IMG/VR virus record: IMGVR_UViG_3300033146_000394
Span: 1 to 64,000 of that record
DNA: 64,000 bases
Origin: a virus
Taxonomy: Duplodnaviria > Heunggongvirae > Uroviricota > Caudoviricetes
Reading direction: 5' to 3' (one strand)
Translations under genes and position numbers: made by a program
Part shown: positions 50,814-54,372 of the stretch, piece by piece
Layout of the letters: every line of letters begins with the position of its first letter
How positions within the stretch are numbered: the first letter of the stretch is position 1
Notes under the pieces: generated by a model
What the model was told of the DNA's origin: nothing
Database searches by the model: none
The model's input: only the letters and a program-made list of their open reading frames with translations

Positions 50814-51110
50814 TTATTGTTCATCATAATTTTCAAACCACTTAGAAATCAGCTTATCATAAAAAGCTTTTTTCTTGGTTTTATAACCAAGTTCTCTTAA
50901 ATTTTTTAAAAATTCCGTTTGTCTTTCAAATGATGTTAATTTATCAAATTCAGCTTCTACTTCTTGGTCAGTCAAATTTGGAGCAAGTTCACCATTAAAG
51001 GTTAAGTCATCACCAATTTCTTCACTAAATTCTTCATTTATATATATATATAAAACCCCATATTTTAAATATCCTAAGACGAAATTACTGAATAGTATAT
51101 TCTTATACAT
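50814..51110 (-). CDS. hypothetical protein
   Basis: 98-aa ORF overlapping the topoisomerase gene start by 8 nt. Confidence 0.35.
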   Translation of the reverse strand: MYKNILFSNFVLGYLKYGVLYIYINEEFSEEIGDDLTFNGELAPNLTDQEVEAEFDKLTSFERQTEFLKNLRELGYKTKKKAFYDKLISKWFENYDEQ

Positions 51111-54100
51111 TACTTTTTTTCAGCTCTTTATATAATACAGTTAAATCTTGTAACCAAATTGTTTTTATCTTTCTTTTTTCTAATTCTTCATATTCGTGTT
51201 TTTTGTTTACATATGATGTTTTCATATCATTTAATTTTTCTGTGGTTAATGATATTAAACTCATATTTAATAAATAATTATAAGATTCTTCTATTTTTTC
51301 TATTTTCAATACTTGTAATTGTTCTTCTATTTTTTCTCGCTTGATGTTTTGTATTTTTAAATTGTTTTTTAATATTTCATTAATAAATTTCATTTTATTT
51401 ATTAATATGAATCTTTCATGCTCTAATTTATTTAATTGATAATCCTTCCTTAATTGATAGTATTCTAATCTTTTATCATAATAATCATCAATTATATTAT
51501 CCACACTATCATACATTTTTATTTTATTTTCTGAATCAAATAATCTCATATTATTTAATGAAAAATGGGTTTCTAATTTAAATGTTGATATTAAATTGTT
51601 TTCAATTTTTTTCATATCTTCTCGTGTAACATTTATTATAATATCAACTTTTTCATCTGTATCATTTTTTGTATATGTTTTTATAACTTTATCATCTTCT
51701 AATTTATCTAAAACATCATAGTATTTATTATTCCATAAACCTATTGGTAATTCTTTTATATTTAATTGTGTTGATGATTTTTTAATAATTACACCTTGGG
51801 TAGTGTATCTATTCTTATCTTCATCATATATTATATCACCAACAAACCCACGAAAATATGGTATTAGTTCTGGTGTTTTTTTATTTTTTATTTTTAAAAC
51901 TAAATATTTAATTATATCTAATGGGTTATAATTTAATATTGATGTTGACCAACCAGTACCTATACCATCTGCACCATTAATTAAAACCATTGGGATTATT
52001 GGTACATAATATTCTGGCTCAATTGGAAACCCATCATCATTTAAATAATTTAAAATATCATTATCCTCAACCATAAATATTTTTTTTGATAAATTTGATA
52101 GCATAGTAAAAATATATCTTGAACTAGCAGCATCTTTTCCACCTTTTAATCTTGTACCAAATGCACCTTTAGGTTCAAGTAAATTAATATTATTTGTTCC
52201 TATAAAATCTTGTGCAATATTAATAATTGCTCCCTCTAATGACATCGGACCGTGGTGATATGCTGTTTCTTCTGTGACAGCACCAGCAAATTGACTAACT
52301 TTAACTTTGTTTTTATATTTCTTTTTAAATAATGTATATAAAACTTTCCTTTGACTTGGTTTAAACCCATCAATAACTGAAGGTATAGAACGTTTATTAT
52401 CTGCCATTGAAAATTCTATAAACTCTTTATTAAAAAAACTATCATATGTAGTATCATCAACAAACTTATCAATTGATAATGTTGGTTTATAGTTAGTTAA
52501 CCATTCTTTTCTATCATTAGATCTTTTTTCATTAAAAATTAAATCAATTATATCGTGTGGGTTTTCATTATATTTAAATGGGATTAAATATTTATTTATA
52601 GTTTTAAAAAACTCTTTTATTTCAGATGCTTCAATTGTACCCAAACCTTTATAATATGTAACAAACCAACCACTTTGTTTTGTTGATTTCCATTTTTTAT
52701 AGTCTTTTAATTTATAAAAAAATTTATATTTCTTCCCTTTTTCTATTTTAACAATAGGTGTAACAAAATCATAAAGAAAATTTAATTTTAATAGTTCTGG
52801 CCAAAAAAACTCAAATATATTTATTAATAACCCTTTTATATGTGAACCATCATCATCTGCATCACCCGCAAAAACAACTTTACCATACCTTAATTTAGAT
52901 AAATCATCATATTTTTCTCCAAATTCTAACCCAAGAGCTAAAATAATATTTTTTATTTCAGAATTTTCTAATATTTTTTTCATTGTAGATTTTCTAACAT
53001 TTAGTGGTTTACCTTTTAATGGGAAAACTCCATAATAATCTCTACCAGTAGTAGAAAACCCAGTAATAATTGTAGAACTTGCAGAATCACCCTCTGCTAA
53101 AAATAACACACAATCTTTTGATTTTGTTGTTCCGGCTTTATTTGCATCATCTAACTTTCTTATTCTAATTTTACTTTTTTTACCTTTATTTAATTTTTTT
53201 AATTCTGCACGTTCTTTTATCTGAATATAATTCATTATATCTTCAATAATATCCGATTTCATTATATCTTTAATCAATCTTTGACTAACTTGAATATCAC
53301 CAATGTGTTTATTTGTTAATCTTGTTTTTAATGTTTCCTTAGATTGTGTATCAAAATCTGGATTAATCACTTTACTATTTAATAATATAAATAATTTTGA
53401 TTTTATATCATTTTCTTTTATTGTTATTTTTTTGTGTTTTTTTTCTAATTGGGTTTTTAATTCTTTAATTATTTGGTTTGTAATAAAATTAACGTGAGTA
53501 CCACCTTGATATGTTGTTATACCATTAACTAAACTAACTTGTTGAAATTCATCAATATTTGTTGATGATACACCAACTTCCCACCCACTATTTAATTTTT
53601 CATAAAAAAATTCATTATTTTTCGTGTGTAATTTACTGAAATCTTCAAATGTTTTTATTGGAATTATTTCATTATTAAAATATACTTTTATTTTTGTATA
53701 TACAGCAACATCAATAATTCTTTTTAATAATATCTGTTTATCTTGCTCTGTTATTTCTGTCATACCAAATCTTTCAAAATCTGGATAAAATGATATTTTT
53801 GTGTATATTTTTTTCGATTTTTTGATTTTTGGTTTATGTATATTTTCTAAATTATTTGTAAACTTTTGATAATATTCATTTTTTCCATCACAAGTTTCTA
53901 TTATAAATTCTTTACTGTAAATATTACATAATTTAGCACCCAACCCATTTTTACCACCAACTAACCTATCTTCATTATCATCATAATTTGTACCAGTTAA
54001 TAAATGCCCAAATATTAATTCTGGTACATATACATTATGTTCTTTATGTATTTGGACTGGTATTCCTGGACCATCATTTTCTATTGAAATGTGATCACTT

Positions 54101-54372
54101 TCTATATTAACTTTAATATACTTAACTTTATTAGTTCTAATATATTGATCGGATGCATTAACTAATATTTCATCAAATATTTTTAAAAAGCCTGGATTAA
54201 ATTTAACTATCTTAGGACTTATTGTAATGTTTTTTAAATCGTGTATATTATCAACTATAAAAATTTCTTTCAATTCAGATGCAGTTGACCCAATATATGT
54301 ATCTGGTCTTTGTAATACATGTTTTCTGTGTGATAATTTTTTATATTGATCTTCTATTGTTTTTTTCGCCAA
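51103..54372 (-). CDS. DNA topoisomerase II (fused ATPase + TOPRIM + cleavage core), eukaryote/NCLDV-like
   Basis: YVPELIFGHLLTGTNYDDNEDRLVGGKNGLGAKLCNIYS resembles human TOP2 YVPALIFGQLLTSSNYDDDEKKVTGGRNGYGAKLCNIFS. Also LAEGDSA, PLKGKPLNVRKS, RKEWLTNY, KRSIPSVIDGFKPSQRKVLY, and YIFTMLS...PIIPMVLINGADGIGTGWS, nearly identical to eukaryotic TOP2. The start is probably the TTG at 54372. Confidence 0.9.
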   Translation of the reverse strand: MAKKTIEDQYKKLSHRKHVLQRPDTYIGSTASELKEIFIVDNIHDLKNITISPKIVKFNPGFLKIFDEILVNASDQYIRTNKVKYIKVNIESDHISIENDGPGIPVQIHKEHNVYVPELIFGHLLTGTNYDDNEDRLVGGKNGLGAKLCNIYSKEFIIETCDGKNEYYQKFTNNLENIHKPKIKKSKKIYTKISFYPDFERFGMTEITEQDKQILLKRIIDVAVYTKIKVYFNNEIIPIKTFEDFSKLHTKNNEFFYEKLNSGWEVGVSSTNIDEFQQVSLVNGITTYQGGTHVNFITNQIIKELKTQLEKKHKKITIKENDIKSKLFILLNSKVINPDFDTQSKETLKTRLTNKHIGDIQVSQRLIKDIMKSDIIEDIMNYIQIKERAELKKLNKGKKSKIRIRKLDDANKAGTTKSKDCVLFLAEGDSASSTIITGFSTTGRDYYGVFPLKGKPLNVRKSTMKKILENSEIKNIILALGLEFGEKYDDLSKLRYGKVVFAGDADDDGSHIKGLLINIFEFFWPELLKLNFLYDFVTPIVKIEKGKKYKFFYKLKDYKKWKSTKQSGWFVTYYKGLGTIEASEIKEFFKTINKYLIPFKYNENPHDIIDLIFNEKRSNDRKEWLTNYKPTLSIDKFVDDTTYDSFFNKEFIEFSMADNKRSIPSVIDGFKPSQRKVLYTLFKKKYKNKVKVSQFAGAVTEETAYHHGPMSLEGAIINIAQDFIGTNNINLLEPKGAFGTRLKGGKDAASSRYIFTMLSNLSKKIFMVEDNDILNYLNDDGFPIEPEYYVPIIPMVLINGADGIGTGWSTSILNYNPLDIIKYLVLKIKNKKTPELIPYFRGFVGDIIYDEDKNRYTTQGVIIKKSSTQLNIKELPIGLWNNKYYDVLDKLEDDKVIKTYTKNDTDEKVDIIINVTREDMKKIENNLISTFKLETHFSLNNMRLFDSENKIKMYDSVDNIIDDYYDKRLEYYQLRKDYQLNKLEHERFILINKMKFINEILKNNLKIQNIKREKIEEQLQVLKIEKIEESYNYLLNMSLISLTTEKLNDMKTSYVNKKHEYEELEKRKIKTIWLQDLTVLYKELKKSNV

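Follow-up and report, generated by a model that had tools for sequence, protein, structure and literature searches.

The first 64,000 nucleotides of the IMG/VR virus record IMGVR_UViG_3300033146_000394 (hereafter the window, meaning this whole stretch) carry a complete gene for a single-chain type IIA DNA topoisomerase (topo II) of 1089 amino acids (AA). We propose that this gene encodes a homodimeric enzyme of a normal huge phage of the Mahaphage clade. It would belong to a clade of single-chain huge-phage topo II enzymes, here called HP, which forms a 'eukaryote-type' class together with the enzymes of nucleocytoplasmic large DNA viruses (NCLDV) and of eukaryotes; we give this reading a probability of about 0.8. 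Two-subunit enzymes, those of T4-type phages and bacterial gyrase and topo IV appear to fall outside the class. A preliminary description had taken the window for a chimeric genome, the product either of the capture of a eukaryotic or NCLDV topo II by a phage or of the capture of phage genes by an NCLDV-like virus.

The topoisomerase and its position among type IIA enzymes

The open reading frame (ORF) starts with a TTG codon, and its product, the query in what follows, is 100% identical to JGI protein P0001, which the protein database places on a JGI contig of 84.8 kb. A Pfam scan finds in one chain, in order, HATPase_c, DNA_gyraseB, Toprim, TOPRIM_C and DNA_topoisoIV, distributed as follows.

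51103..54372, minus strand: complete topo II gene, single-chain type IIA, HP-clade member; 1089 AA plus stop (Pfam; phmmer against PDB)
53623..54372, minus strand: GHKL ATPase domain (N-gate), about AA 1-250; Pfam HATPase_c at AA 64-163
53173..53622, minus strand: transducer, about AA 251-400, with Q-x-K loop Q343/K345; Pfam DNA_gyraseB at AA 256-393
52393..53172, minus strand: Toprim, TOPRIM_C and B-A linker, about AA 401-660; Pfam Toprim at AA 422-526, TOPRIM_C at AA 536-659
51103..52392, minus strand: A-type half, AA 661-1089, with winged-helix domain (WHD) carrying Tyr705 (AYHHG), tower and coiled-coil C-gate; Pfam DNA_topoisoIV at AA 661-1077

The catalytic set N72, D75, Q343/K345, E427, D504/D506/D508, Y705 and R661 is invariant in 12 of 12 HP sequences, and these HP residues align with their T4, Escherichia coli and eukaryotic counterparts. 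Within the ATPase domain, N72, D75, the GxxGxG-type motif GGKNGLGAKL and the other ATP-site residues are unvarying in the HP alignment, while the QSK of the transducer loop aligns with the QTK that is present in all type IIA enzymes. The Toprim and linker region holds EGDSA (AA 427-431), PLKGK (AA 451-455) and DADDDG (AA 504-509) as well as GSHIKGL, and I663-P664, in the A-type half, are invariant within HP, like Y705 and R661. The chain stops directly past the C-gate helices, with neither a C-terminal regulatory domain nor a GyrA/ParC beta-pinwheel; the alignment blocks that only eukaryotes possess map before query position 2 and beyond position 1089. No intein was seen in the query. An AlphaFold model, which was built from a 12-sequence alignment and adds little beyond the sequence match, has long helices at AA 957-1001 and 1044-1086, and its ATPase region compares with the yeast ATPase domain at a TMt of 0.83-0.84.

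By the mechanism of the family, two polypeptides would form a homodimer whose paired ATPase domains clamp a T-segment duplex, using ATP; the G-segment would be cut by Tyr705 together with the Toprim acidic cluster, and the T-segment would leave via the C-gate. Like the T4 and eukaryotic enzymes, the protein is predicted to relax and decatenate DNA rather than supercoil it, since it has no wrapping domain of the GyrA type. It would help to replicate, unlink and segregate the very large chromosome of the phage.

In a phmmer search of all PDB sequences, the query scores 857 bits with yeast Top2 (4gfh; E 1.7e-256), 831 bits with human TOP2B and 828 bits with human TOP2A, compared with 314 bits for the topo II of African swine fever virus (ASFV), 230 + 135 bits for T4 gp39/60 and gp52, and about 170 bits for gyrase/topo IV fusion constructs. 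Foldseek with the predicted model returns the same ranking (identity 41% for yeast, 40-42% for human, 23% for ASFV, 28-29% for T6 and ~20% for gyrase), and the alignment to eukaryotic TOP2 is collinear across about AA 3-1057. The best score against an NCBIfam bacterial family is 215 bits for a cut-off of 740, and the GyrB/GyrA and ParE/ParC cut-offs are not reached. The preliminary description had called the protein fused, collinear with TOP2 and far nearer to it than to T4 gp39/60/52, and these scores bear it out; judged by its sequence, the query is much more eukaryote-like than T4-like. It had also called the protein nearly identical to TOP2 over long blocks, which holds for the motif blocks but not overall, as identity to the yeast and human enzymes is only 40-42%; the two peptides that it quoted are present, PIIPMVLINGADGIGTGWS at AA 790-808 and RKEWLTNY at AA 621-628. 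HP shows 42.9% identity to eukaryotes, against 44.5-47.2% for NCLDV to eukaryotes, and 41-42% to NCLDV. HP also outscores both a eukaryotic and a mimivirus-like NCLDV enzyme in comparisons with T4 gp39/60 (230 bits versus 201 and 185) and with the ASFV enzyme (314 bits versus 250 and 253), which fits a short-branched, intermediate lineage near the base.

When 1.84 billion representatives were searched exhaustively, the top ranks went to a few HP members (at least 975 bits), followed by 143 sequences of 792-918 bits, 39-47% identical to the query, from which we took the group of NCLDV and eukaryotic enzymes, here called NE. A 23-member NE group of 1,300-1,900 AA includes Corallochytrium and Polykrikos (EukProt) and is thus eukaryotic. 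Five NE members that were examined sit in NCLDV-type gene contexts (TFIIB, SWIB, mRNA capping enzyme, Pox_A22, N-myristoyltransferase, RING/U-box, RFC, DUF5760/5832/5901). The comparison also took in T4, Morganella phage vB_Mm5 with its fused Straboviridae enzyme, eight phage enzymes made of two subunits and E. coli gyrase, and bootstrapped neighbour-joining (NJ) trees were made from 185 sequences and 1043 columns with three distance corrections. Rooted on gyrase, the NJ tree forms a ladder: T4 and vB_Mm5, other two-subunit enzymes, the Xanthomonas/Ralstonia jumbo-phage type, and then HP beside NE. Bootstrap values under the three corrections are 77-83% for HP, 66-85% for NE and 77-81% for HP+NE. 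The latter group is also recovered when the two halves of the protein are analysed apart (78% and 82%) and after Dayhoff-6 recoding (86%, with replicates counted with or without the mosaic LR756504 described below). HP lies outside the sampled NE clade, whose monophyly is supported at 60-85% when the recoded analysis is included. Since HP spans 22-64% GC and the grouping withstands Dayhoff-6 recoding, an AT-driven amino-acid bias is not its cause.

Discrete characters point the same way. Outgroup-polarised derived states common to HP, NCLDV and eukaryotes number 10 under strict and 22-23 under loose counting; 1-2 unite NE alone, and none joins HP to either NCLDV subclade or to eukaryotes. Two small indels, found by eye, are exclusive to HP and NE (three residues after EGDSA, and 'GG' after GTRL), and a third is common to HP, NE and the Xanthomonas-type two-subunit enzymes. 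A search for large group-specific indels was dropped, strict thresholds having given merely two 4-residue differences. TOPRIM_C was likewise rejected as a marker of the eukaryote type, as two-subunit and T4 enzymes, gp60 included, match it too; these split and T4 enzymes match profile positions 1-95 only, whereas the query covers the whole profile (1-128 of 128).

These results bear on the view that the query is a plain T4-type gp39-gp52 fusion whose likeness to TOP2 reflects convergence or slow evolution. Such fusions do exist, vB_Mm5 (1074 AA) being one, T4 topo II is already known to be structurally eukaryote-like, and gp60 shares TOPRIM_C; but vB_Mm5 groups with T4 (46% identity) while the query shares no more than about 30% identity with either of them, monophyly of all phage enzymes receives 0% bootstrap in four analyses (the three corrections and Dayhoff-6), and the shared indels and the 10-23 derived characters link HP to NCLDV and eukaryotes. 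We therefore regard this view as highly improbable. Branching with phage gp39/gp52 fusions was the outcome that the preliminary description had named as contradicting a eukaryotic affinity, and it is not seen. In conclusion, these comparisons lend good support to placing HP with the NCLDV and eukaryotic enzymes; a sister relationship between them is provisional, and either direction of ancient transfer is hypothetical.

The huge-phage clade and possible directions of transfer

Single-chain homologues of about 1,075-1,110 AA, 48-79% identical to the query, form at least 120 clusters at 90% identity. They lie on phage contigs of 200-736 kb, the largest being of 736, 678, 669, 640 and 617 kb. The lowest identity inside HP is 43%, compared with 46% inside the sampled eukaryotes, so that the two are of comparable diversity. 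One option in the preliminary description was that a eukaryotic or NCLDV gene had been captured by this phage. The strong similarity to eukaryotic TOP2 and the presence in the window of ankyrin and patatin genes, also common in NCLDV, would agree with such an event. As a recent capture by this one phage, however, it is very unlikely: the nearest eukaryotic or NCLDV sequence is about 47% identical, less than any of these phage-borne clusters, the clade is deep and lies outside sampled NE, and the GC content of the gene equals that of the rest of the window.

The deep HP member P0108 is encoded on a contig of 426 kb and 64% GC that also bears baseplate, amidase, PhoH, ligase and extracytoplasmic function (ECF) sigma genes. 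On this contig (L104) a helicase of the same domain make-up as the one in the window directly adjoins the HP-type topo II, and directly downstream of the latter, at 13375-14283, lies a gene for a 302-AA pentapeptide-repeat protein. Pentapeptide proteins of the Qnr/MfpA type mimic DNA and modulate type IIA topoisomerases, and for this reason the L104 protein could be a dedicated topo II regulator. The sole Pentapeptide_4 match in the window, in a 1380-AA ORF at 32483-36625 (minus strand), is weak.

Among the 185,579 bacterial and archaeal species representatives of GTDB, no isolate genome carries an HP-type enzyme, and the only matches of 38-45% identity are a few contigs of metagenome-assembled genomes (MAGs). 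Another HP member was found on a 212-kb contig binned as Ignavibacteria. Contigs with an HP- or NCLDV-type topo II inside bacterial MAGs (L002, which is GCA_013177855.1 JABLYA010000006.1, and L024-L031) come from bins of Ignavibacteria, Dojkabacteria, Salinisphaerales, Poribacteria, Rhodobacteraceae, Cytophagaceae and others, and are probably mis-binned viral contigs. Full-length matches of 25-28% identity (query about 10-1065) occur in DPANN (Woese-, Pace- and Micrarchaeota), in Atribacterota and in cultured Leptospira; these may be cellular genes, single-chain or tightly adjacent GyrB/GyrA-like.

One huge phage carries a mosaic. In LR756504.1 (636 kb), at 442016-447241, a two-subunit topo II has an ATPase-transducer part that groups with HP (88% bootstrap, 52% identity), while the Toprim region and the A subunit, which is a separate chain, are of the T4/jumbo-phage type, with 36-39% identity to everything. 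This observation suggests domain-level recombination between both enzyme classes within huge phages. We excluded from the trees the topo II of the 462-kb phage LR756500.1, which several inserted ORFs break up. Mobile insertions are common in topo II genes: three HP members of 1211-1232 AA (P0020, P0022 and P0095) carry an insertion, and two NCLDV topo II genes (L016 10001-15700 and L017 3045-7643) carry inteins (Hom_end_hint/LAGLIDADG).

The place of HP beside NE raises the question of direction. We tentatively entertain the possibility that HP, with its single-chain enzymes, is the real sister group of NCLDV and eukaryotic Topo IIA as a whole, the two-subunit jumbo-phage enzymes lying just below; the eukaryotic lineage would then have arisen inside tailed phages, and the B-A fusion would have taken place in phages before the gene reached the forerunners of giant viruses and eukaryotes. 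Conversely, the fused enzyme might have entered an early huge phage from an NCLDV, from a mirusvirus or from a (proto-)eukaryote and then spread and diversified among huge phages, HP being truly nested within NCLDV and eukaryotic diversity and its sister position an artefact of missing NCLDV orders or weak methods. This second history would agree with the B-A fusion and the two indels common to HP and NE, with the evidence from LR756504 that topo II modules recombine between phage enzyme types, and with the weak reciprocal monophyly of HP and NE in the A half (14% and 2% bootstrap), which is backed by just the 1-2 polarised characters mentioned above. It would also agree with a tree whose sampling does not extend to Asfuvirales and Pimascovirales, the ASFV enzyme having just 250-314 bits against everything. 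We nevertheless consider it somewhat unlikely, given that no polarised character nests HP with NCLDV subclades or eukaryotes, that HP exceeds the eukaryotic and mimivirus-like enzymes in score against both T4 and ASFV, and that its internal diversity about equals that of the sampled eukaryotes. In addition, the Xanthomonas/Ralstonia two-subunit enzymes, which have one indel in common with HP+NE, lie just below them, so that the outgroup-rooted tree puts the whole eukaryote-type class inside phage diversity.

Several features of the data weigh against the interpretation that we favour, namely a eukaryote-type class in which HP stands beside NE and is carried by ordinary huge phages. The A half, as just mentioned, does not separate HP from NE, the internal stems are short (0.04-0.08) relative to the terminal paths, and the trees are distance-based (NJ) rather than maximum-likelihood with site-heterogeneous models. 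The NE sample is biased to the top scorers against the query, is without labelled Asfuvirales, Pimascovirales or Algavirales (ASFV was assessed through PDB cross-scores only) and may contain sequences of mirusviruses, another group that has a topo II; few of its members are labelled, only 2 of 20 clusters looked up bearing organism names, and genomic context was used otherwise. Because of this bias and of the missing orders, HP may yet prove to lie within the full diversity of NCLDV. The AlphaFold model is of middling quality (pLDDT, the predicted local distance difference test, of 66.6, and below 50 in the WHD region). No major capsid protein, terminase or portal gene was found within the 64-kb window, and no local synteny with the Mahaphage genome LR756501 was found around topo II. 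Within 20 kb on either side of topo II the window shares one other gene with LR756501 or with the Ignavibacteria-binned contig; this lack of conserved synteny would suit an ancient capture, yet with a single shared neighbour synteny is uninformative on vertical inheritance.

Genomic surroundings and expression signals

The GC content of the window is 19-27% throughout, and the topo II gene is not an outlier. Domain searches located all of the gp32, gp43 fragment, lysozyme, gp19-like, sigma factor, IF3, ankyrin, patatin and SPFH genes that had been reported in the preliminary description; the leucine-rich repeat gene that it also listed did not turn up in the ORFs scanned. The features of the window outside topo II are the following.

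5556-6530, minus strand: second T4-type family B DNA polymerase (PolB) ORF (phrog_24943)
14136-14666, plus strand: full-length translation initiation factor IF3
18376-19224, plus strand: SPFH/Band 7 protein
19496-20155: ECF-like sigma factor
24980-26479, plus strand: MoxR-like AAA ATPase
26499-28196, plus strand: DUF2201 metallopeptidase/VWA protein
37400-38365: gp32-type single-stranded DNA-binding protein (domain search)
39988-40422: ankyrin protein
41343-42158: phage lysozyme
43355-43912: tail tube, gp19-like (phrog_45; the Pfam gp19 match is weak)
44427-45404, minus strand: patatin-like phospholipase
45375-47129, plus strand: T4-type PolB fragment (phrog_262/1918)
47901..49544, minus strand: XPD/Rad3-like DNA helicase, about 1.6 kb downstream of topo II (Pfam Helicase_C_2/ResIII/DEAD_2; phrog_2488, 333 bits)
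50280-50687, minus strand: hemerythrin, just downstream of topo II
54438-54812, plus strand: K/D-rich low-complexity ORF with repeated DDKKDDKKSDDKK, between the terminator hairpin and the topo II start
54831..54874, minus strand: hairpin terminator of the gene upstream of topo II, an 18-bp stem followed by a T-run

The window also encodes a thymidine kinase and an N6/N4 methylase. The two PolB ORFs, about 39 kb apart and on opposite strands, suggest a split polymerase. The MoxR-like ATPase and DUF2201/VWA genes form a two-gene module that is conserved in phages (phrog_1297 and phrog_1314). The ORF at 54438-54812 may be spurious, lying in a promoter region, or may encode a small, highly charged protein.

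The helicase and the tail tube are closest to LR756501/LR756503 (735 kb), LR756502, LR745206 and LR756504 (634-642 kb), and the next-best matches after these Mahaphage genomes are Lak and Tenacibaculum phages. These LR7565xx and LR745206 genomes belong to the Mahaphage clade, with predicted Bacteroidetes hosts (Al-Shayeb et al., 2020; PMC7162821); the clade has genomes of 540-735 kb and is defined by terminase large subunit and major capsid protein phylogeny. The neighbours of topo II are thus phage genes best matched by Mahaphage genomes of 634-735 kb, and from its gene content the window would be that of an ordinary huge tailed phage of this clade, not a chimera. A Bacteroidota host is probable. 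The IF3, hemerythrin, SPFH and patatin genes are huge-phage auxiliary genes and no sign of a eukaryotic host; the intracellular or eukaryote-associated host that had been deduced from leucine-rich repeat, ankyrin and patatin genes is unnecessary, such genes being common in huge phages.

The same gene content leaves next to no probability to the other half of the chimera proposal, that the contig belongs to an NCLDV-like virus with a captured block of phage genes. Its topo II is of the eukaryote type and its GC content of 22% resembles that of some Imitervirales; nevertheless the tail tube, gp32, T4-type split PolB, bacterial sigma factor and IF3, the baseplate genes of relatives and the matches to published huge phage genomes exclude it. 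Moreover, no NCLDV hallmark gene was found among the genes searched in the 64 kb, and a Bacteroidota-type promoter motif is enriched.

As to this motif, TAyCTTTGyA occurs 8 times in the window where 1.3 are expected, and none of 100 shuffles reaches 8. The sites, mostly 25-40 nt before start codons, are at 3672, 6634, 9723, 11742, 23897, 30417 and 47864 (minus strand) and at 60841 (plus strand); it is absent upstream of topo II. It is probably an extended Bacteroidota-type -7 promoter element for a subset of genes. The promoter claim of the earlier reading survives in this longer form only: the loose TAnnTTTG on which it was based was rejected as a signal, since it is not enriched (125 versus 144 expected; 8 sense versus 7 antisense upstream of genes). 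A scan of the window for sigma-70-type promoters was at chance (67 found versus 66 expected). The reported absence of Shine-Dalgarno signals is confirmed, a Shine-Dalgarno-like motif being found in just 1 of 61 window ORFs, and this near absence, together with the TAyCTTTGyA enrichment, fits a Bacteroidota host. Rho-independent terminators had likewise been reported, and terminator-like hairpins number 3 versus 0.7 expected in the 6 kb around topo II. Because the hairpin at 54831-54874 terminates the upstream gene, topo II would open a new leftward transcription unit, which may extend through a 98-AA ORF, the hemerythrin gene and the helicase.

Relation to known enzymes

To our knowledge, no archaeal orthologue of eukaryotic topo II exists, and gyrase is only a very distant relative. 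Acquisition of the enzyme from giant viruses is the current proposal (PMC9752973), and phage Topo II is classed apart, as a multi-subunit group that lies on the bacterial side (PMC9752973; PMC11461880). Guglielmini et al. (2022; PMC9752973) sampled only those Caudoviricetes that match all three T4 subunits, found the phage enzymes on the bacterial side, and had to assume that the enzyme, once transferred to NCLDV, evolved drastically faster and had its subunits fused; the 2024 paper on the T4/T6 structures keeps the three-subgroup view (PMC11461880), and jumbo-phage topo II has been described as two-subunit (Iyer et al., 2021; PMC7824862). Single-chain phage enzymes that are 43% identical to TOP2 and group with NCLDV and eukaryotes break the separate-group picture, and any rooting must include them. 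If HP is indeed the sister of NE, the phage-origin reading supplies the missing intermediate for the scenario of a root 'between Bacteria and Caudoviricetes' (Guglielmini et al., 2022; PMC9752973). More generally, HP makes the direction of transfer, from phage to NCLDV and eukaryotes or the reverse, testable with public sequences. As TopoII serves to mark NCLDV in sequence surveys, huge-phage contigs that carry HP-type genes could be misidentified as giant viruses. Finally, a compact phage enzyme of 1,089 AA could be a handy model for TOP2 biochemistry and inhibitor studies.

We found no description of HP in the literature searched, which left out most subscription-journal papers; JGI labels some members simply 'DNA topoisomerase-2'. 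Fusion alone is not new in phages, as the T4-type enzyme of vB_Mm5 attests; what sets HP apart is that it unites many single-chain phage enzymes of the eukaryote type in one large, apparently undescribed clade. The function of the gene is ordinary, and it is its phylogenetic position, undescribed as far as can be told, that is notable.

One of the closest known enzymes is that of the Mahaphage genome LR756501/LR756503. Its record is unannotated and Al-Shayeb et al. (2020; PMC7162821) mention no topoisomerase, but it encodes a topo II that is fused and of the HP clade like the query, 54.9% identical to it across 99% of its length, and the same genome supplies the best matches to the window helicase (47.6% identity) and tail tube. 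The T4-type and two-subunit jumbo-phage enzymes (XacN1, RsoM2USA, pf16, SCTP-2) are, like the query, phage-encoded and core-only, with no wrapping domain and a presumed function in the replication of phage DNA, and the Xanthomonas/Ralstonia type is the closest phage relative outside HP (35-39% identity). Unlike the query, these enzymes consist of two or three subunits, are 30-37% identical to it, lack the post-EGDSA insertion and the 'GG' indel, and branch below HP, NCLDV and eukaryotes. The NCLDV Topo IIA enzymes (for example of the Imitervirales type) resemble the query in being core-only single chains of about 1,050-1,200 AA without a C-terminal domain, and share with HP the same derived characters and indels; ASFV P1192R is a divergent member, only 23% identical to the query (314 bits). 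The virus of the query differs from them in being a tailed phage (Duplodnaviria, not Varidnaviria), the query falls in a clade of its own (77-83% bootstrap), and it is free of the inteins present in several NCLDV genes. Yeast Top2 and human TOP2A/B share with the query the single chain, the domain order and the motifs EGDSA, PLxGK, DxDxD, GSHIKGL and AYHHG, with about 1,050 collinear residues and small indels that T4 and two-subunit enzymes lack. In contrast with eukaryotic TOP2, the query has no N-terminal extension, is devoid of the entire C-terminal regulatory domain, is phage-encoded and lies outside the eukaryotic clade.

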